Shown here piece after piece: positions 13,110 through 38,594 of a stretch of DNA of 39,542 nucleotides (the first letter of the stretch is position 1; the number at the start of each line of letters is the position of its first letter). The DNA comes from Rozella allomycis CSF55 (lineage: Eukaryota). The notes below the pieces were generated by a model. The model searched no databases. It had not been told where the DNA came from and worked only from the letters and a program-made list of their open reading frames with translations. Where the stretch lies: positions 1 to 39,542 of the forward strand of contig KE561185.1 in the NCBI GenBank assembly GCA_000442015.1. Direction: 5' to 3'. Both the position numbers and the translations under genes were made by a program.

Positions 13110-13506
13110 TTATTTTTTTTTCCGCAATCGTTTGCTTCTTCTCGGCGAAAATACCCTGTCTCTTAAAATCTGGATGACGTCGTCGTACCCGTACTTGATA
13201 GCGAGTTGAGCCGCATAATTGTCCTGGAAGTCTACTCTAGGATCGTCAAGCAAAATTCCGACAACTTCTGCATGTCCGTACATTACAGCAATACTAATAG
13301 CATTATTGTTATTTGCACTGGGATCAACCCTGGAATCTGCAAGCAAAATTTTGACAACTTCCACATGTCCTTTCAAAGAAGCTATCTCAATGGCATCATT
13401 GTGATAGGCACTAGGATCAACTCTAGGATCTTCAAGCAAAATTTTCACAACTTCCACATGACCATTTTGAGAAGCTTTTCGAATAGCATAATTGTAATCG
13501 GCACTA
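13110..13506 (-). CDS. ankyrin-repeat protein C-terminal part with basic NLS-like tail
   Basis: VDPSA..N.AI..A...GH.EVVKILL repeats; ends SPRRSKRLRKKK; 5' end broken at n13507. Confidence 0.75.
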
Positions 13507-13697
13507 NCCGTGATGGAAATGTCATCGATGATCGAATAAATCCCTAGGTGACTGTTTATATTCAAATTGCATCCCATTTCAAATTTAAAGCGGTATTAAA
13601 TTACGAAGTCTTTCCTAAATGCAGAATGATTTTTTTTGAAACTTTAAAGATAATTTATTAAACTAAAAACANCTAAAAACATGAACACGACCCACCT

Positions 13698-14132
13698 TCA
13701 CATTATATTTGACTCAACTCTTGAATCGTGAATTAAGATTTTCACAACTTCCGCATGTCCATACACATAGGCTTTTCGAATAGCATCATTGCCATCAGCA
13801 CTAGGATCAACTCTTGAATCGTCAAGTAAAATTTTGACAACATTTGCATGCCCGTTCCGAGAAGCTTTTCGAATAGCATAATTGTCATTTGCACTAGGAT
13901 CAACTCTTGGATCTTCAAGTAACATTTTGACAACTTCCGCAAGGCCAAAATTAGACGCACATCGAATAGCAAAATTATCATTTGCACTTGGATCTACCCT
14001 TGAATCTTCAAGGAACATTTTCACAACATTTGCATGTCCATTCCTAGAAGCAAGCAAAATAGCCTCATAGTCATTAGCAATCGGATCTACTGTTGGATCA
14101 TCAAGTAAAATTTTGACAACTTCAGCGTGACC
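13698..14132 (-). CDS. ankyrin-repeat protein C-terminal part (paralog)
   Basis: About 4 repeats of 34 aa, stop at 13698; broken at n14133. Confidence 0.75.
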   Translation of the reverse strand, partial: GHAEVVKILLDDPTVDPIANDYEAILLASRNGHANVVKMFLEDSRVDPSANDNFAIRCASNFGLAEVVKMLLEDPRVDPSANDNYAIRKASRNGHANVVKILLDDSRVDPSADGNDAIRKAYVYGHAEVVKILIHDSRVESNIM

Positions 14133-14133
14133 N

Positions 14134-15025
14134 ACATCGAATAGCAAAATTGTAATTTGCACTTGGATCTACTCTTGAATCTTCAAGTAACATTTTGGCA
14201 ACATTTGCATACCCATTCCGAATAGCAAGCCGAATAGCTTCATATTCATTAGCATTAGGATTAAGTCTTGAATCTTCAAGTAAAATTTTGACAACATTTG
14301 CATGTCCATTCCGAGATGCAAGTTCAAGGGCATCGTTGACATATGTACAAGGGTCAACTCTAGAATCTTCAAGCAAAATTTTGACAACATTTGCATGCCC
14401 GTTCCAAGAAGCACTCCGAATAGCAGAATTTTCATCGGCACTTGGATCTACTCTAGAATCTTCAAGCAAAATTTTGACAACATTTGCATGCCCATTCCAA
14501 GAAGCAACCCGAATAGCATAATTGGCATTTACACTTGGATCAACCCTGGAATCTGTAAGCAAAATTTTAACAACTTCTGCATAGCCAAAGTCACAAGCAA
14601 ACCGAATAGCAACATTTTTCGCATCACTTGGATCCACTCTGAAATCTGCAAGCAAAATTTTGACAACCTCGGCATGTCCGTTCGTTGAAGCATTTCGAAT
14701 AGCATCATTGTCATCTGCGCTTGGGTCTACTCTTGAATCAGCAAGCAAAATTTTGACAACTTCTGTATGTCCGTTCATACACGCATTTCGAATAGCATCA
14801 TTGTTATTTGCACTGGGATCAACGATTGGATTTGTTAAAAGTAACTTAACAATTTCTGTGTGCCCATATTCTGCTGCTACCCTAATTGCATAGTTTCTGT
14901 CTGCTGAAGGATTTGGGTTGAAACCATTCTTGAGACTATACAATTCGCTGATCACCATATGCCCGTCTTGGGTTGTATGTATTAGATTATACTGGCATGC
15001 AAACTGGAAAGCATAGTCAACAGCT
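14134..15025 (-). CDS. ankyrin-repeat protein internal part (paralog or allele)
   Basis: About 7-8 ankyrin repeats, near-identical to 15144-15700; bounded by n14133 and n15026. Confidence 0.75.
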
Positions 15026-15143
15026 NCGAATAGCATCATTGTTATATGCACTGGGATCAACGATTGGATTTGTTAACAGAAACTTAACAATCTCTGTGTG
15101 CCCATATTCTGCTGCTACCCTAATTGCATAGTTTCTGTCTGCN

Positions 15144-16013
15144 CATTTTGACAACATTTGCATGTCCTTTCCGAGATGCAAGTTCAAGGGGATCGTTGTC
15201 ATATGTACAAGGGTGAACTCTAGAATCTTCAAGCAAAATTTTGACAACATTTGCATGCCCGTTCCAAGAAGCACTCCGAATAGCAGAATTGTCATCGGCA
15301 CTTGGATCTACTCTAGAATCTTCAAGCAAAATTTTGACAACATTTGCATGCCCATTCCAAGAAGCCCTCAGAATAGCAACATTGTCCACATCACTTGGAT
15401 CCACCCTGGAATCCGCGAGCAAAATTTTGACAACTTCTGTATGCCCGTTCATAGACGCATTTCGAATAGCATCATTGTTATTTGCACTGGGATCGACGAT
15501 TGGATTTGTTAAAAGAAACTTAACAATCTCTGTGTGCCCATTTTCCGCTGCAATCCTTATTGCATAGTTCCTGTCTGCTGAAGGATTTGGGTTGAAACTT
15601 TTGTTGAGACTATACAATTCGCTGATCATCATATGCCCATCTTGGATTGTATGTATTAGATTATATTGGCATGCAAACTGGAAAGCATAGTCAACAGCTT
15701 TTTGAGAAGTATCCTTTTGTCTAAGGAAGTTCAGAAAGCAAACGAACCTTTCAAATTTGTTTCGTCTAACTCTGTTATTGCCTTCGAGAATGTCACCACA
15801 TAAATCCATGTTTAGCAATTTACCACAACTCTGCTTAATAAGATATTGAATTACACATGGACATTTCCATGAAAGACTTACTTCCGGAGCTTGATGAAGG
15901 ATCAAGTCGAAGCAAAGTGAACGAAGCCAGCGTGATGTCCGAGAAATTTGTTTCACATCATTTAAACTTAAGTGCGACAAAATAACCAGCCAAACTTCAT
16001 GTGGTACCTCCAT
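15144..16013 (-). CDS. F-box + ankyrin-repeat protein (N-terminal part)
   Basis: ATG 16013 MEVPHEVWLVILSHLSLNDVKQISRTSRWLRSLC matches the F-box consensus and is followed by ankyrin repeats; truncated at n15143. Confidence 0.75.
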
Positions 16014-16069
16014 TTTGTAGGGAAAAGGTTTATCAGAACCGGGGTTTTCTATTTTTTTAACCGAAATAT

Positions 16070-16706
16070 ATGACTTGCACTCATTTCTCTGTAATTTATT
16101 CAGGCGAAATACATTCATCCAACGTAACATCGTCATTAATTTAAAATAGCTTCCTGCATACGACGACCTATACGTTAAATACTCTATAGTGTGCGGGCCC
16201 GACTGGCAAGTCCTTTCAGTAAAACATCATTCTAGGCAAGACAGGGCATTGAAGATGGCATATCCCAGATATCCAAAAAGACGCTTTATTCGGGTAACTC
16301 TTCAGTTTGGAACTTTCCGATTGACCTTTCCCTGAAATCGACCCAGGCTCATGGCTGGCCACGAATGGTTATAAGTGTGTACGGATTGGATGCTCTTGGA
16401 CGTGATGTTATCCGTGGGTATGGAATGTGTCATCTGCCGTTAGTTCCCGGGCGTGAGCAGATTAATGTGCCACTGTTTGTGCCAAGGGCAGGAAGCTTGT
16501 TTGGGCAGGTTTTTGGAATTTTAAGTGGACGGCTTCCAGAGTTTGTTGATCCTCGCTTTGTTGCTAATTATGATGATCGCGATTGTAAATTGATTTTGAA
16601 AATTTGAATAGTTGTTAGGACGGAGAGCTATGGGAGTGTAAAGATATCGGTGGAGACTGTTTTCAAAGATTTTGATAAATTTTATTGCTTTTGTTATTTA
16701 TTGTGA
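16070..16706 (+). CDS. B9D1: B9 domain-containing protein 1 (ciliary transition zone, MKS module)
   Basis: Spliced: DDLYVKYSIVCGPDW..G.EDGISQ..VWNFPIDL..KST..HGWPR..SVYGLD.LGRDVIRGYG..HLP..PG; three micro-introns. Confidence 0.9.
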
Positions 16707-21920: not shown

Positions 21921-22184
21921 TGCAATTGACCAGGGTTGGTGGTCGAGGATTATGAGGGCGAGGATTAAGAATTTTTGAGAAAGAAATTTGAAGGGTTGAG
22001 AGTTCGTCTTTACTTTCATAAAAATTTGCAAGGGTTGGGAACGTTGAAAGTGAGTGTGACTGTTGATATCATGCTTTTGCTCGGAGATATTTAAAGTATC
22101 CAGACGATGAAAGTTTGCTGAGTAAAAATAGAAATGAAACAAACCAAAGAAAAGTACCCCTAAGTTTCAAGTTTCTCCTCATAT

Positions 22185-22511
22185 ATGAGTATGAAGACGA
22201 GTTTGCAATACACAATCTTGAATGGCTATAACTATGATTTCTGGTGCAAATGCACCCGCATAGAGTTGATGGCAAATGGTGTCTGGCACCATGTCATTAA
22301 CGAGCCTGACCAATGCGACTTTGAAAAAATGGCGCCTGAACAGCGTATCATGGAAGCAAAAGCGCTTGCATTTCTGATGAGACTTGTCCATAGAAAAATT
22401 TTGAAAGAGTACCAGAATTATATGGGATATGCTAATCAGCTGTGGATTGCCCTGAAATTAAGTTATGAGGGAGTGGAAATAACTTCAGAATCTTCTTCGG
22501 TTTTCTTATAA
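22185..22511 (+). mobile_element. Ty1/copia gag N-terminal-like ORF (108 aa), no LTR or pol
   Basis: LNGYNYDFW...RIEL.ANGVW..V and A.QLW..LK.SYEG resemble DUF4219/Retrotran_gag_2 consensus. Confidence 0.6.
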
Positions 22512-22647
22512 GAGGGAATGAACCAAAGCAGACATTCAATTAATAAATAGTTGGGGAAATATGAGTTTTATTGATTTCGATTGCTTAATGATTGAATTCT
22601 CGAATCTTAAGCATTATCGGCGATCACCATGGTAAAGGAACCTTTTC

Positions 22648-24078
22648 ATGAATCACAGGAGAATAAGGTTCATTTCACTAGGTATCACGATTTTGGTTAC
22701 ATTATTCGTTACTCTTAAATTAAACGGTGAATCTGGTACATCTACGATAATCCTAAACGACATTGAGAGTTTAAAGGCGAAAGAAGAATTAAAGATGCCC
22801 GATCAAAGTAAAGAGACTTCAATAGATAGAAATGATCGTGTAAAACACACGTTAAAATCTCTTTCATCGTTTCTTAAAAAATATTTATCAACATCACAGA
22901 ATGAATCATCATGTCAACGGACTCTAGTCTGCAACGTAAATAAGGCTTGCGGATTTGGTTGCCAAATACATCACGCAGTCCATTGCTTTCACACTGCTAT
23001 TGCCACTAAAAGAACACTTGTTCTTGAGACAAAAGATTGGTCCTATAAACCTGAAGGTGGTTGGGACAAGATATTTCTACCAATAACGCAATGTCCTAAA
23101 AGACAAGAAGAAAATCAATATCCATTTTTCTCAGAAGATTCTGATCACGACCCACATGTATTTCTTCCTATTGTAGAAAATAATCAGCCAAAGTACGAAA
23201 TCCCAAATATGCCAGAGGATCTTTTTGATGAACTTAAATCGATCCACGGATATCCAACTGTGTGGTGGATTGGTCACCTTGTTTCTTACATTTTGAGGCC
23301 TACTTTGAAAACTCTCGAACCAATGGAAGATCAAAAGCGATTGTGGGCATGGCAAACTCCAGTTGTTGGGTAATTCTAAATGATTTATAATCATGTTTAG
23401 TGTGCATATACGACGAACAGATAAAATAGGTCTAGAAGCGATATATTACAGTTTGGATGAATACATGGAACATGTAGAGAAATATTTCAGGACATTGGAA
23501 TANACGTAGAGAAATATTTCGGGAAATTGGAATCTAGCCAATCTGTGAAAGTGAAGGCTGTCTTTTTGGCTACCGATGAGCCGCAGGTTATTCAGGAGGC
23601 TAAATCGCGATACAAGGAATACATCTTCTATACCAACGATCATGCTGCCTCTTTAGCGAACCATGTTTATGGCAGTAGATATTCGGATTCTTCTTTGCAT
23701 GGAGTGTTTTCAGACGTGTATCACTTGTCAAATACAGATTTTCTTGTTTGTACAATGTCATCGCAGATTTGTAGGCTTGCATATGAATTGATGCAAACAA
23801 AGCATACCGATAAATCAAATTCATTTGTATCTCTTGACGACCCTTATTATTTTGGTGGTTGGCTTCCAAAAAAGGTGTGCGCCATTGAAGATCATATCGC
23901 GAAAAGCTCTGAAGGACTCGATGCACGCATTGGTGATATTTTTGAACATCTGGGGGAGAATGATGGGTTTGTCAAAGGAAAAAATATCAGAACTGGTAGT
24001 GTAGGTCTGATACCCACCAATAAAGTTGAAGTTTGCATGAAAGGAACGCCTTTTCCTAATATTCTTAATGATAAATAA
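22648..24078 (+). CDS. FUT8: alpha-(1,6)-fucosyltransferase (GT23, FUT8-type) with C-terminal SH3
   Basis: Type II TM anchor; CGFGCQIHH; VG|VHIRRTDK; FLATD; DFLVCTMSSQICRLAYE; SLDDPYYFGG; SH3-like tail ...G.N.RTG..GL.P..KV; one intron at ~23370-23400; n join at 23503. Confidence 0.9.
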
Positions 24079-25990: not shown

Positions 25991-26485
25991 TTAATAATTT
26001 TCTGATGCTAGATTATAAATATATTCTTCATAGTAAATCTTTCCTTCTCGTGGATCAATACTGGCAGCAATGAACTCATCAATCTCTTCTTGATTCATTG
26101 GCTCTCCAACTCCCTCCATTGTCATATATTTTACCAATTCTTCTTTAGTCAAGTAGCCCTTCTTATCTTTATCTAATGCTTGAAAGCTCTTGTAGATCTT
26201 TTCTTCATCATCCCTCTTGAACGCTTCGTCCGTCATTACCAGTGTCATGCAGTTGTAAAAGTCTGTAAACTTTACTGAATTGGTATTCTCATCTCTATTC
26301 ATTTGTACTAATAACGCTTGTATTTGGTCTTCAGTCGGGTATATAGCTAGAGCCCTGATTATTGTTCCGACTTCCTTGCAGTCAATGTACAATTCATTAT
26401 TAGTTTCTGTTATTGATCCAGTTGCTTTGAAATCTTCCACGAGTCCTTTAAGACGATCTGACCAAGAAATGTTTTGTTGTTTCAT
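25991..26485 (-). CDS. EFCAB2: EF-hand protein, dynein regulatory complex subunit 8
   Basis: D.KEVGTIIRAL..YPTE..., FQALD.DKKGYLT.EEL.KYM..EG..EP..QEE.DE...A.ID; intronless. Confidence 0.75.
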   Translation of the reverse strand: MKQQNISWSDRLKGLVEDFKATGSITETNNELYIDCKEVGTIIRALAIYPTEDQIQALLVQMNRDENTNSVKFTDFYNCMTLVMTDEAFKRDDEEKIYKSFQALDKDKKGYLTKEELVKYMTMEGVGEPMNQEEIDEFIAASIDPREGKIYYEEYIYNLASENY

Positions 26486-26588
26486 TTACTAAATTGGATG
26501 GTTTCCAAGCAGTCGACAACAAATCAATTGCAATCTCACGGTGTAAATCAAATTAATACGTGATTTTTGCTTTAACAAAATTTTTTAT

Positions 26589-28160
26589 TTAATCAAGTAA
26601 TTTAAACGACAATATTTCATATGCAATTCGTTTTCTAAAATAGTCCATGTCTTTTTGTGAAAAATCAAATGCTTTCTGCTCTGATATACATTTTGCATAC
26701 ATCAAACTAAATACACCACAATCATAGCCATTGTGTTGATGAGGATTATTTACATTGACATGTTTTTTCCACAAAGAAAAATCTATAGGGGTTCCCTTTT
26801 TGTCTAAATGTTCATTTTCTAAATAGTCTCTCATTAACTATATTAATAATTCAAAATATTTACGTCTAAATGGCCGCGATCTGAACCACCAAGTGAATCG
26901 TAATACTCAAATCTCTTTTCGATAAAGTTCGCAGCACTCATGCACCAATGAGACGATAAATGTACAGGAAATAGAATAATGTCGTAGCTAAAAATATCTG
27001 CCTTTTTATCTCTAATTGTAAATCGTTTGCATTTTTGAAATCCATCGTCTCTATAAAATCCATAAAAGAATGAATTGAAAGTATAAGTTTTGGGATATTT
27101 ACAATTTTGCTGCTCACTTCTTCTTCTAAGCATTTTACAATAAATATTTATAACCTGGTTGAAAATAAGATTAAAATCGTTACTGAATCTTCTAGCCATG
27201 TTCCGGGCTTCAAGGATTGAGGGCATGCATAATACAATGTGGTACCAACCCCATCAAATGATCCTTCTATTTCATCATCTGGATTCCTTTTAATGGCCTT
27301 TTGAATTAGCGATTCCATTTCATTCGTGATTTCTGGTCCCCGCCTTTTCACATCCACTAGTTTTTGAATCTATTTGATTTAAGACTAATTAAATACTTTT
27401 AATTGTTTTTCTTTTTCTCGTTCGTGATGCTTCCTGGGTGTTTCTGTAGTCTTTAATGTTGCCTTTATTCTATTATGAGTATTTATATCTGATACCTCTG
27501 AATAATATCATCCAAATCATTTCTTTTTGACTTTCTAAATTCACTTGAGGGTGTCTTTAATGGAGTCATCCTTGTGACTGATTTTTTACTCGGAGTTTTA
27601 AAGTCTGGCAAAACGTCGTCCATGTTAGATTCTTGTACATGTCTCTTATAATCTATTTCGAAAATCAATTATTCAATACCCTCTAATGTCATTTTGTGAT
27701 TAATAGACTTGTTATCCAACGGACTCTTAACCAATGTGTTGAAAGGTGTCGTCTGAGACTGTACGGACGCTGACAACGCTTGTTTTACAGGAGTGCCAAA
27801 TTTAAAAGGGTCTATATCTTTCTGATATTTTTTGGTTCTAACGCTAAAAGGAGTTCCAACATTCTTGTTAGAATTCGGTATCGTACAAACAACATCGTCG
27901 GATTTCTTCGCAGGAGATGTTTCCACATTCCAGTTTTTTTCGGTAGAAATGAATAAATTCTCTACTCGGAATCCATTTGTAGATGCAGCTTTCGTTTTGG
28001 CTTTTTCGGTCGACTTTTTTTTCATCGCTGTAAATGGCTTTGTAATGTAACTTTTAACTTTGGAAAATATCTTGAATAAAGTGATATTATTTGATTTTGG
28101 TTTTTTAGACACTGGAGACTCTTGTTCAGAAAAACTCTCCCGTTCTCTTTTCAGAGTCAT
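26589..28160 (-). CDS. ULP1: SUMO protease, Ulp1/SENP (peptidase C48)
   Basis: SLKPG.WL.D.VIN.Y, FNSFFY, PVHLSSHW, YYDSL, Q.NGYDCGVF; disordered N-terminus with basic NLS. Confidence 0.88.
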
Positions 28161-28214
28161 TCAGAAATTTCTGGGAACAGCTATAGAATAAAGAATTACA
28201 TTAACATTTAACAA

Positions 28215-29331
28215 TTATTTATTGGAATATCTATAAGTTTGTACATTTTTCGGGGTATAAGAATTTGGAGGTAACGTAATACTGAAATTACCCAGCGGCG
28301 GAGCAGAAAAGGAGTTACGATTATGTTGATTAGCAGTTCTAATGGTATCATAGATGGATATTAATTCTTTTGAGTTTCTTGCATTGAAAATGGGATCAGA
28401 AAGAATCATGTCTATTGACGGTCGGTTTTTCACATCAATTTGCAATATACTTCTGATGAACCTTTCTATTCCTAGAATATTTCCCAGTTATTAAAATACC
28501 ATTTGATACAGGCTTTACGAAACGAAGTGGTTGGTTGAATATTGCATGCTTCACGTCAGCACTAGAATCATTGGTTCCATAGGGAAGTGTGCCATTAACC
28601 ATGACAAACATGATTATTCCGAGACTCCAAACATCCAGTTCTGGCCCTATGTAGCTTTTTCCAAGATGAAGTTCAGGTGCTGCGTACTGCACAGAACCGC
28701 AATGCGTTTTCATTCGTTTATTGATATCATATCTACAAGATAGTCCCCAATCAACAATTTTCAATCTTCCTTTCGAATCAAACATAACATTTTCGCATTT
28801 CAAGTCTCTATGAATCCATCCATGATCATGTGCGTGTTTCACGGCGGAACAAAGTTGATAAAAGACCGATAACGCGCTCAATTCCGACAAAGGACCATAC
28901 CTTCTAATTCTATGGAAAAGTTCGCCTCCGTTACAAAGTTCCATGACGAGATAAAAATTATTGTGAGTTTCAAGTGCATCGTACAACTTGACAATATTGG
29001 GGTGATCTAGAGATCTCATTGCTTCTATTTCTCTCGTAATCACTGATAAATCCTTGACTTGGTTTTTGCGCAATGTTTTAACCGCTACCGGGCAATGTGT
29101 TTTCGTGTGAATACCGTATTTCACACAGGAGAAATTTCCTTGGCCAATTGAATGATATAGCTGGAAATCTCCTACGATTTTTAGCATTCTATTGGAATAA
29201 GTTCGATGAAACGCTTCAATGTTGTTTGGATTCGTGCTAACGGACATGTAGTTTTTTTGAGCGGCAAGCCACGACTCCGATTGAAATTCAGGGGTATTAG
29301 AGAATGAAGCGATTTCCTCGGAGAAGTACAT
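28215..29331 (-). CDS. CAMK-group (AMPK/MARK-related) Ser/Thr protein kinase
   Basis: IGQGNFS.V, VAVK, HPNIVKL, HRDLKCEN, DWG, CGS..YAAPE, Y.GPELDVWSLG; one 3' intron. Confidence 0.88.
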
Positions 29332-29471
29332 GGATGAGTCTAGATTGTTTGTATTGTTTACAAAAGTTAAATTAAATACATTACAAAATTAATTGGCTCA
29401 AAGTTTAATTACTTGACATCAGCCACCAATTCATACATTCCGGGTTAAATTGACCAGTAAATCAAATATCA

Positions 29472-30211
29472 TTATATACATATATCGTACTTTATTATTA
29501 GCTCTTGCTCTCCTTTGTATACCTCATTTGAAACTAACCATTTAAGATCTTCAAAATTTTCAAATTTGGTTTCATTTTCATAGTAGAGTTTTATTCTTTC
29601 GGATTTAACATTCATAATTATTCCTAATAATGCCGATAAATGATTATACGAAGCTTTCAAGGGACACTTACAATAAGGCGCATTTAACTGTTTCAACCCA
29701 CTGTTTCATCAAATTGCAATAATTACCTTTTAAGAGGCATAAATTTTACAAAGATATGTCTAGAAAAAGTTCTTCTTTGATACTTTTCTACATCTTGGTC
29801 TAAATCTTGCTTGTCGTTTGATTCTATTTTGTCGTAGTCTTGAACTACTGAAGAATCTATCTTCTTAATTAACGATTGTATTTGATAGTCGGGTCTCAAA
29901 ACAAAAATTATAAAAGTTTACTTTATGTTGGATATTGTCGCAGCATCTATCTTTAGTTTGCATTCCGGGCACTTGTGATTCTTTTTCACATAATTTAGAA
30001 TACAGGATTTACAGACTACATTTAAGTTTAAATTATAACGTACATGTATGCATACAATCAGTTATAGTCATCGCTTGAGAACAAAGTTTGTGACATAAAG
30101 GGCAGTCCAAAATTTTTCTCAACTCGTCCTTCCTCTAAAATCTCTAAAAATAGAAATTGTTACTTTCAAATCGTTGTTGATATACATTAAACATCCTTGA
30201 TCGTAAGGCAT
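29472..30211 (-). CDS. Polycomb group RING finger (PCGF/Psc-like) protein: C3HC4 RING + RAWUL-like domain
   Basis: Spliced: LRKILDCPLCHKLCSQAMTITDCMHT|FCKSCILNYVKKNHKCPEC...NIK|PDYQIQSLIKKI, then LKQLNAPYCKCPLKASYNHL...LIIKY; four micro-introns. Confidence 0.72.
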
Positions 30212-30234
30212 TTGCAAACTTTTGCTGTGCCACA

Positions 30235-31143
30235 ATGAGCGAGATTCCAGAGGATTTAAGCTTTGTTAAGAACTACCTGATCAAAGCGAAAGAAACTAAA
30301 GAAAAGGAGCCAATTGTGTCTTATTATTGTAATAGAATTACTCTAATTAAAAACTAAAGGCAAAATGTATGCGCTGCAATTATGTCAGAATGCAAGAGAA
30401 TCATGGATTAAAAATCAATTAGCGACAGCAACAGTAATGCAAATATTGGGCGATCTTGAAAACGTAAACTATATTGTCACTGATATTGTAGGAGAAGATC
30501 GCTCTTGAGAACAATGAAATATTTAAAAACGATGAGGCTACTAGAGCATACATAGAAAATTTTGCACTTAAAGTTTTCAAATTAGCGGATGATGACGATA
30601 GGGCGGGGAACGGTTCAAAAAAGACTGTGTTAATGTACAAGTCTGCGATTACATTTATTGAAATATTAAATATATTTGGTGAAATTCCCGAGGATGTAAA
30701 AGATAGATCAACATTTTTTATAGTTTAATGTAAAAGTGAAACATGCCAAATGGAGAATGGTTGAGATTGCTAAAGCCATGAAAGAAGGACGTGAACCTAG
30801 GCCTGTTGAATTACAATCTCCATCAATGTCTACTCCAAATGATCAGACACTAAACAATACCAACGAACAAACACATATTACTTCTCCCGTGGGTTCTCAG
30901 GTTTCACCAACCATTCCAACGAGTATAAATGTTCATCAAAGTATAAGAACAAGCGATTTTGATGAGCCGCTACCAGAAGATTATTATACATTTATAGAAA
31001 CCAAAATTGACGATAGAATTACCAATGAAGCACAAAAGTTGGCCAAATATGCTGTTAGTGCATTAATGTTTGATGACATTCCTACGGCAATAAAGAATTT
31101 AGAAGACGCCATAAAGATCTTGAAGCCATATGACACTAAATAA
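30235..31143 (+). CDS. VTA1: Vps4 cofactor Vta1 (MIT domains + VSL)
   Basis: EPIVSYYC.MYA.Q, ENFALKVF..ADDDDR, KVKHAKW....I.KA.KEGR.P, AQKLAKYAVSALMFDD. Confidence 0.9.
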
Positions 31144-31300: not shown

Positions 31301-31318
31301 TTTTTTCATTTTTAACTA

Positions 31319-32179
31319 ATGATGGACATGATTCAAAATTATCCCACTCCAGACTCAATTAACACCCAAACTCCAAAAAGAAGAAAGGAACTTCGGTCAA
31401 TGATTGAAAAAAGCTATGCTTGCGTTACCAAACCTTGTCAGAAAAAGGAAAAAGAGAATGAAAAGCCTTTATCAACGATAAGCGAAGATCAACCAAAGTC
31501 AGATAAAAAAAGCAAGCGAGAGCTTTATGCGGAGTGGAATGTTCGATCGTTTACTGAGAGGCGAAAATTGGTGTTTGTTGCTGGCAACTTACTATCTTAC
31601 GTAACCCTTGTGAATGATAAAGTAACATTTATTTTTCTGTTAAAATTTAGTTCCATGGACAAGGAAGAGAGGCTATTACAAGGTTCCATAGTCAATGTAT
31701 TCCAAAGTTCAGTATTATATCATATTTTCAACGGTAACAAATTATATTTAAGTGTAATTAGGATATCCCAGTACGCTTTATGTAGCAATGAAACATTTAT
31801 ATTTGCTTTGATTTACATAGATCGAGTTTTGGCGTCATGTCCAAGTATTTTATTAACATCATTGAATATCCATCGGATGTTTTTAACATCTGTTTTAATT
31901 GCAGGAAAATACAACGATGATTGCTTCTTTGCAAATAGTCATTATGCTCGCATTGGTGGAATATCATGTACGGAAATGACAAATTTGGAGAGAGAGTTTC
32001 TAGCCTATTTAAAATATGATTTGAGTGTTCCGTTATCAACATACGATTACTATACAAAGAATCTGGATTCATTTCTTAAAAAAGTATCGTCCCTACCTCA
32101 TGAAAAGACAATCAAATATCCTTTCATGTCGTTAATCCATTTAATGTCCACAATGACCATCAATCAAAATATAATATAA
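31319..32179 (+). CDS. Pho80/Pcl (P/U-type) cyclin
   Basis: With introns 31622-31650 and 31734-31761 removed: TRFHSQCIP.FSI..YFQRI..YA.CS...FI.ALIYIDR, NIHR, KYNDD.FF.N..YARIGG, LEREFL. Confidence 0.85.
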   Translation: MMDMIQNYPTPDSINTQTPKRRKELRSMIEKSYACVTKPCQKKEKENEKPLSTISEDQPKSDKKSKRELYAEWNVRSFTERRKLVFVAGNLLSYVTLVNDKVTFIFLLKFSSMDKEERLLQGSIVNVFQSSVLYHIFNGNKLYLSVIRISQYALCSNETFIFALIYIDRVLASCPSILLTSLNIHRMFLTSVLIAGKYNDDCFFANSHYARIGGISCTEMTNLEREFLAYLKYDLSVPLSTYDYYTKNLDSFLKKVSSLPHEKTIKYPFMSLIHLMSTMTINQNII

Positions 32180-37488: not shown

Positions 37489-37646
37489 CTATGGCGCAGC
37501 ATTTCCATCTACGGTCGAAAACGTGTTTCACAAGTTCAAAAATGTGACAATGTTAAGTATTGACTTTATACTACCTATTTTTAGGCCATGTGTATTTTTA
37601 TAAGGACGGCAGGTGGCTTTCCGCTAAATTAGCCACACAAAACAAA

Positions 37647-38594
37647 ATGGCGACCATAGAGTTTTCAGGCTTTCCTCTATATATCAGATATGGCCAAACA
37701 TATAATATCGACTTTAACATCAAAGTAAAAAGAGAAATCAAAGCCGTGCGTCAAATATCGTTGTCCTTGAAGGAGAAATTATGGTTTAGGTATACTCACA
37801 AGTACTCAGACTTGTTAATCGACGAAACTTTTGATATTCTTTCTATTGATCTCAGCTCCTACATCACAAACGAGGGCACCATAAAGGCTGGATGCTATTC
37901 TGGCTGTCTTGTAATAGACACAGTAGAATTGAACCTTCTGTCATGCACCATTCCAAAAACATACTTGAATTTCTGGTCACGATGTATAAACTATGAAACT
38001 CACAATGTCACATATTTCCCGCGCAAATCGGCTAATATGCTGCGAGAAACGTTTATTGATTTCGAAATAGTTAAACGCGGCTGGTTTCGTAGAAATGTTA
38101 GTCAAAAGAGAAAATTATTGATCAAGGAAATTCCAAGTGATTACTTTGCGCCTCTAGAATTACGTGATATGGAACCACACGTAGAATACTTGGAGTCATT
38201 TCCAATGACCGCAACCGTTATATTTGAAAAGAGACAGTTACTCTGTGGATCCACTTTAAGATTTTCTTTAATAATAGAGAATCGATTCCCTGTCGATGCC
38301 AGAATCAAAAAGGTTTGGATTTCCCAAGATACTAGTTTCAAATTTGTCCATCAAGAGCTAACTGATGACGACATCATTTCTGATGATTGTAAGATTAGTC
38401 TCAAAAAGGTGCCTCCAATAAAGCCGAATACAATGCAGGAAGTTAAACTTCAAATGAAGCTTCCAAAGAAATGGTCTTACAGTATCATCAATGGAGATCT
38501 TGTCATGAGGCACTATGGCGTCTACTTTGTTATCGGAACGGAAGATAACGAACGCGACTATTATGCGCCTTTTCAAATTCTTGACGAGATGTAG
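37647..38594 (+). CDS. divergent arrestin-fold-like protein (paralog 1), intronless
   Basis: Two beta-rich halves; G.T....L.IEN......IKK..I.....F; P.I.P.......L..KLP.....SI..G.LV...Y.V pattern resembles Arrestin_C. Confidence 0.5.
   Translation: MATIEFSGFPLYIRYGQTYNIDFNIKVKREIKAVRQISLSLKEKLWFRYTHKYSDLLIDETFDILSIDLSSYITNEGTIKAGCYSGCLVIDTVELNLLSCTIPKTYLNFWSRCINYETHNVTYFPRKSANMLRETFIDFEIVKRGWFRRNVSQKRKLLIKEIPSDYFAPLELRDMEPHVEYLESFPMTATVIFEKRQLLCGSTLRFSLIIENRFPVDARIKKVWISQDTSFKFVHQELTDDDIISDDCKISLKKVPPIKPNTMQEVKLQMKLPKKWSYSIINGDLVMRHYGVYFVIGTEDNERDYYAPFQILDEM

Follow-up and report, generated by a model that had tools for sequence, protein, structure and literature searches.

Gene structure and neighbourhood of the locus

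The window, by which we mean the whole stretch of 39,542 nucleotides of Rozella allomycis CSF55 DNA that was analysed (contig KE561185.1), carries on its minus strand a predicted gene for a PCGF-type RING protein, running from an ATG at 30211 to a TAA at 29474-29472. Splice models were enumerated using GT-AG introns of 18-60 nt and ending at this TAA; ten models reached the stop and eight of these retained all motifs. The longest predicted model encodes 209 amino acids in five exons, separated by four GT-AG introns of 29, 28, 27 and 26 nt, with a GC content of 19-27% in the introns and 30-37% in exons 2-4. Exon 1 (30164-30211) encompasses 16 codons and is identical in the public model, although translation may instead begin at a second in-frame methionine, at 30187. 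Intron 1 (30135-30163; 29 nt, GT-AG, phase 0) is followed by exon 2 (30044-30134), which encodes the first half of the C3HC4 RING with ligands C27, C30, C43 and H45. Intron 2 (30016-30043; 28 nt, phase 1) is located at HT/F, and the second half of the RING (C48, C51, C62 and C65) is encoded by exon 3 (29922-30015; 94 nt). After intron 3 (29895-29921; 27 nt, phase 2), placed within the K codon preceding PD, exon 4 (29727-29894) encodes the post-RING helix, which aligns with BMI1 D72-K81, a charged linker and the probable first strand of the RAWUL domain. The predicted intron 4 (29701-29726; 26 nt, phase 2) separates this strand from exon 5 (29472-29700), which encodes most of the RAWUL ubiquitin-like domain and runs through the stop codon.

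The public protein (P0001; EPZ32088.1 and RKP17138.1) is 174 amino acids long and shares the first three junctions of the 209-residue model. Its last intron was annotated as 131 nt (29726-29596), which removes 35 RAWUL codons (29596-29700). The 105 bases skipped in this way are open in frame with a GC content of 33%, the rest of exon 5 having 26%, and on the sequence we infer the 26-nt intron 4 in preference to the 131-nt one. Introns of 28-31 nt also interrupt the adjoining Vta1 gene, indicating that micro-introns of this size are normal at the locus. The start and stop codons given in a preliminary description of this DNA, made from the letters alone, were thus recovered, as were the two introns it had placed at HT/F (phase 1) and NIK/PD (phase 2), junctions that the public protein shares. 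The motifs listed there (the RING, D...Q.LI.KI, ..CP..A...HL and L.I.Y) are present, with one spacing in the RAWUL pattern off by one, and the 74-residue open reading frame that was all the ORF track had caught is explained by the last exon, which is a 75-codon open stretch yielding 74 residues from a TTG.

The preliminary description had also suggested that both introns match positions in animal BMI1/PCGF genes. Introns 2 and 3 map to BMI1 F38 and R70, and exon 3, at 94 nt, shows a one-residue gap against BMI1; the human gene presumably has a 97-nt exon between the codons matching F38 and R70. All 80 loci retrieved in a metagenome scan were continuous across both intron positions (72 by pattern and eight by reading), the pattern having spanned intron 2 and thereby excluded genes that carry it. 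The literature searched yielded no BMI1 exon boundaries.

The Vta1 gene (plus strand, ATG at 30235) lies head to head with the PCGF-type gene (30187-30235). The two start codons are 23 nt apart, or 47 nt if the second PCGF methionine is used, which requires either overlapping 5' ends or a very small shared promoter. Further along the window, positions 22636-24078 (plus strand) encode a FUT8-type alpha-1,6-fucosyltransferase with a C-terminal SH3 domain (E 5e-39 to solved FUT8), and FUT8-domain enzymes have already been reported from chytrids and Mortierellomycotina (PMC10481521). Tandem ankyrin-repeat ORFs with near-identical units, interrupted by N positions, occupy 13110-16226 (minus strand); the upstream ORF has an F-box-like domain and the array looks like a local F-box/ankyrin gene expansion. 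A ciliary B9-domain gene (16236-16607, plus strand), a weak copia-type gag fragment (22164-22511, plus strand) and a weak arrestin-C match (37557-38594, plus strand) were also observed. The segments 25991-29388 and 31316-32179 encode an EF-hand protein, a Ulp1-type protease, a protein kinase and a cyclin, with no Polycomb link.

Assignment of the RING and RAWUL domains

The C3HC4 family PF13923 was matched by P0001 at 34.3 bits (Pfam cut-off 27), and all eight zinc ligands of the RING map onto BMI1. The best natural matches among solved structures were PCGF1 (E 3.5e-13), BMI1 (9e-11), PCGF6 (4e-10) and RING1B (6e-10). A Rad18/TRIM-type RING, which the preliminary description had named as the alternative, is not borne out by score, with RAD18 at 7e-5 against 3.5e-13 for PCGF1 and no TRIM protein better than 1e-5. 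A library search using P0001 returned 2282 proteins at E 0.001, and the best 149 non-self matches of these were classified with our own profiles as PCGF-type (136), RING1-type (3) or other (10), a count with some circularity, since 60 of those matches had served to train the PCGF profile. Independently of these profiles, RAWUL was among the five best Pfam families in 31 of the 59 matches scanned, these being the short ones within the top hundred. Word-based homologue searches returned only the protein itself, both for exon 5 (one of 29 candidates) and for P0001 (one of 22).

The query RING scored 91.3 bits on the PCGF profile versus 53.0 on the RING1 profile, whereas 12 other RINGs reached at most 51.2 bits and RING1 members have a median of 148 on the RING1 profile. 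The RING1 signature CPTCR...RSLRPD is absent from the Rozella protein. At three BMI1 positions with reported effects on how the nucleosome is bound and ubiquitin oriented (R64, K73 and D77), the Rozella protein has A, Y and S, respectively, and K62 is gapped; the BMI1 62-64 region contains a gap in the alignment and its assignments are less certain. A non-basic residue at BMI1 position 73 also occurs in other PCGF-type matches.

Two trees were calculated. The RING+RAWUL tree contained 44 of 50 rows, PCGF and RING1 only and without an outgroup, six RING1 rows having been removed because their RAWUL score was weak or the motif did not match. It separated PCGF proteins, including the query, from RING1 proteins, including Rozella RING1, with support of 100/100; the query had the longest branch, grouping loosely with a protein of the chytrid Globomyces and two others, and was assigned to no particular animal PCGF subclass. 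In the RING-only tree (79 rows, 88 columns), the query branched off first among the PCGF-side proteins (84/83); two long outgroup rows were misplaced inside the PCGF and RING1 groups. The query fell outside the RING1 clade in both cases (96/91 RING-only and 100/100 RING+RAWUL), in trees that contained no RAD18 row. A basal place beside RING1 was not rejected by the AU test (p-AU 0.059), but the test is uninformative on membership because placing the query and RING1 on one side is equal to the basal PCGF-side place. The RING phylogeny proposed as a check came out on the PCGF side, with weak RING-only support. Taking the best structural match, the 91.3 versus 53.0 bits and the 100/100 split together, the PCGF identity proposed in the preliminary description is supported, and the sequence data make the Rozella gene very probably a PCGF orthologue.

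The evidence for the C-terminal domain came from several sources. Exon 5 matched a single Pfam family, RAWUL, at 14.7 bits (cut-off 33.5), and no RAWUL was found by phmmer of exon 5 against solved sequences. A custom RAWUL profile, for which 31 PCGF-type proteins from outside Rozella were used, gave 18-21 bits (up to 21.1) on the C-terminus of the predicted 209-residue model, aligned over profile positions 15-90 of 92, as compared to 1.3 bits on the public 174-residue model, at most 11.4 bits on shuffled controls (2000 shuffles, 1854 scored) and at most 5.3 bits on the other 406 of the 407 open stretches of the window. The ESM Atlas, which involves no custom alignment, returned RAWUL-bearing clusters in its top three places (0.90, 0.90 and 0.88), with the family on 57, 31 and 19% of their members. 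An AlphaFold2 model of exon 5, biased by its 38-row PCGF alignment input, reached a pLDDT of 82.7, and the single-sequence model was poor (pLDDT 50). The four best Foldseek rows for the former were the PCGF1 RAWUL (E 0.019-0.075, TM 0.58-0.63), no row at all reaching E 0.001, and a wide fold search yielded generic ubiquitin-like and PB1 folds (Z up to 6.0), among which the BMI1 ULD entry ranked 20th. The RAWUL-like segment seen in the preliminary description was thus upheld by profile and Atlas alike, and the AlphaFold comparison it had proposed gave a ubiquitin-like C-terminus with the PCGF1 RAWUL on top. On the predicted splice model, the C-terminus encoded by exons 4 and 5 is a diverged RAWUL domain.

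The predicted RING1 partner and the published record

A RING1 gene, which the preliminary description had proposed to look for, was identified as a separate gene by searching the genome with P0001 (G000:C556; L005:1371-2269). The RING exon found there is similar to proteins named RING1/RNF2. The public model (P0151; 191 residues) is mis-spliced and lacks the central part of the RING as well as most of the RAWUL domain, and both domains are restored by introns of 26-40 nt. When a 28-nt intron is used, the C3HC4 RING is whole and scores 122 bits on the RING1 profile, and with introns of 29 and 28 nt the RAWUL domain scores 22.7 bits versus 1.0; in the linker, 45 splice models leave the choice of introns ambiguous. 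The restored protein retains all eight zinc ligands, I53, R81 and R91, with R/R at K97/R98 and G at D56, which is the pattern described for non-animal RING1; plant RING1 with G at D56 is active. Just 22 residues precede the RING, and an LS.YE-type arm was not found in the 1.4 kb upstream. Rozella RING1 scores 24 on the PCGF RAWUL profile, indicating that RAWUL profiles separate the subfamilies poorly. RING1 and PCGF are usually co-retained or co-lost (r = 0.7).

The search for further components was of limited power. No RYBP/YAF2 candidate emerged from the genome search, a type of search that also missed the RAWUL and RING exons of the Rozella PCGF; a genome search with Pfam RAWUL gave no candidate and missed even the Rozella PCGF itself, as did a typical PCGF query. 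As a known gene was missed in this way, blanks such as RYBP are uninformative in Rozella. Nine other RING loci, those surfaced by the P0001 and typical-PCGF genome searches, were scored for a second PCGF and, apart from RING1, none exceeded 31 bits. Three UCH-family deubiquitylase genes were found (L011, L012 and L016, on G000:C851, C559 and C417); the UCH exon on C417 gave 52.6 bits to UCHL5 versus 49.1 to BAP1, on one exon, and this gene is a candidate PR-DUB-like enzyme. An ASXH/DEUBAD-domain gene above the Pfam cut-off (L017; G000:C253:9233-9520) has a basic motif upstream of the domain that we take to be AT-hook-like. The PKK lysines of H2A are kept in all four copies printed, this motif not being diagnostic.

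A 2020 review stated that critical PRC1 components are encoded by no fungal genome (PMC7348808), the premise from which the preliminary description started. However, the surprise attached in the preliminary description to PRC1 in a fungal lineage is not supported, as RING1 or PCGF orthologues from Rozella and Gonapodya, and a confirmed PRC1 in Spizellomyces, were already given by de Potter et al. (2023) (PMC10638273), a survey that scored PRC1 only where RING1 and PCGF were both found. Its orthologue files contain six Rozella entries (EED, EZH, RBBP, RING1 and two SUZ12 fragments), among which the PRC2 core is listed, and the RING1 entry is identical to P0151. No Rozella entry was found in its PCGF file, its putative-PCGF file or its PCGF alignment. 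Its PCGF BLAST list includes ROZALL001245 (E 3.2e-5; BMI1 from residue 11, subject from 20; 25 identities, 50.1 bits), and BLAST of BMI1 against P0001 gave equal starts, identities and score, from which we infer that ROZALL001245 is P0001. ROZALL001245 was left out of the PCGF set by the 1e-5 cut-off applied there, and the gene was missed because the public annotation mis-splices it. Among the literature searched for Polycomb and Rozella together, subscription papers lying outside its scope, only de Potter et al. (2023) was found. What is new here is a correction of two gene models and one survey entry, PRC1 in early fungi being already in print.

Proposed function, rival readings and comparison with known systems

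At the level of predicted proteins, the analysis demonstrates that the same genome encodes a PCGF-type RING with a RAWUL domain and a separate RING1 that keeps the E2- and nucleosome-contact residues. These two predicted proteins complete the PRC1 core in Rozella, beside the reported PRC2, and, judged by analogy, it is likely that they form a RING1-PCGF dimer. As in human PRC1, the PCGF RING and the following helix would pair with RING1, which would bind the E2~ubiquitin and dock on the nucleosome acidic patch; the pair would then mono-ubiquitylate the lysine pair (K118/K119) of the H2A C-terminal tail, and both RAWUL domains would bind as yet unknown targeting subunits, the likely outcome being local gene or repeat silencing beside PRC2. 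For this full chain, with a compact PCGF in an H2A-ubiquitylating RING1-PCGF ligase, we put belief and doubt in even balance. A narrower proposal, in which a stripped two-subunit PRC1 (about 209 and 248 residues, with no known RYBP, CBX or SAM partner) writes H2A ubiquitin beside a full PRC2 core, is advanced tentatively, at somewhat less than even confidence. CBX was not found outside animals in the orthologue survey (PMC10638273).

A true PCGF might instead dimerise with RING1 and perform no H2A ubiquitylation, the dimer modifying a different substrate or serving as a chromatin scaffold without catalytic activity, which we regard as a possible but rather doubtful reading. H2AK119ub has been reported in holozoans and Arabidopsis only and has not been detected in fungi; a proteomic survey (Grau-Bove et al., 10.1101/2021.11.30.470311) recorded it only in some holozoans, although Spizellomyces, which has both subunits, was among the species cultured, and Rozella is not mentioned in its main text. 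The altered PCGF residues and the short N-terminus of RING1 point the same way. However, the same survey warns that ubiquitylation is hard to detect, and it is hard to see without enrichment; the residues of the catalytic face are intact in Rozella RING1, and plant RING1 is active despite having the same G at D56.

It is very unlikely that the gene is a second copy of RING1 that evolves fast, or that it encodes an unrelated RING protein whose tail is ubiquitin-like. The poor separation of RAWUL profiles, the weak RING-only support and the p-AU of 0.059 for a basal place beside RING1 would allow this, but the RING scores of 91 versus 53 bits, the 100/100 split, the predominance of PCGF among the best matches and the presence of a clear RING1 elsewhere in the genome all argue for PCGF. 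Highly improbable, too, is that the public 174-residue model is right and that its 131-nt intron leaves a truncated RAWUL in a PCGF decaying within a reduced parasite genome. This form is deposited under two public accessions and the branch in the RING+RAWUL tree is long, yet the skipped 105 bases contain no in-frame stop, resemble exons in GC and hold the RAWUL signal, and an intron of 26 nt is in line with those of PCGF, RING1 and Vta1, at 26-31 nt. As an obligate parasite, Rozella is grown within its host, but contamination with DNA of the host fungus or of some other eukaryote is scarcely credible, as the flanking genes share GC and micro-introns, the gene is present under two accessions and, in the orthologue files of de Potter et al. 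(2023), the Allomyces rows lie outside the PCGF files.

If the predicted pair is accepted as a PRC1 core, an early-branching fungal lineage with an 11.9-Mb parasite genome would carry the cores of both PRC1 and PRC2, which would place PRC1 loss later in fungal evolution and mean that it did not accompany the genome reduction of this parasite. The presence/absence call in the survey would be corrected accordingly, Rozella counting for both cores (PMC10638273). Introns of 26-29 nt led to wrong splicing of both PRC1 genes in the public Rozella models, and absences called in other genomes with micro-introns deserve caution accordingly. The two proteins, both very short, also offer a convenient pair for asking whether H2A is ubiquitylated by PRC1 beyond animals and plants; should the two-subunit, H2A-ubiquitylating complex prove true, it would be the smallest natural PRC1 and would reveal a fungal H2A-ubiquitin Polycomb mark, pointing to unknown RAWUL-binding targeting factors.

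Compared to known systems, RAD18, TRIM and BRCA1/BARD1 proteins have a C3HC4 RING followed by a helix, as does the Rozella PCGF, but their E-values fall short of that of PCGF1 by 6 to 9 orders of magnitude. RAD18 carries UBZ and SAP domains after its RING, and TRIM proteins a B-box and coiled coil; none of these was found in the Rozella protein, Pfam giving only RING families for P0001 and only RAWUL for exon 5. Human PCGF1 and BMI1 resemble the Rozella PCGF in the context of the C3HC4 RING, the post-RING helix, the zinc ligands and the C-terminal RAWUL, with about 32-35% identity over the RING region. The Rozella protein differs from them in being 209 residues long, with no tail past the RAWUL domain, and in not keeping K62, R64, K73 and D77. 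Among early-diverging fungi, a PCGF-type RING is likewise present in SPIPUN008085 of the chytrid Spizellomyces and in Gonapodya GONPRO012211, both already identified as PCGF in print (PMC10638273), whereas the Rozella gene is not. The 208-residue Globomyces protein KAI8902654.1 (P0057), which is PCGF-type and annotated as hypothetical, also combines a RING with a RAWUL domain, and both trees place it close to the query, with support that is not strong. RING1/RNF2 proteins, including Rozella ROZALL004212 (P0151), share the RING and RAWUL layout with PCGF but form a separate clade and, in Rozella, are encoded by a separate gene on C556; RING1 and PCGF are described as paralogues that predate the last eukaryotic common ancestor (PMC10638273).
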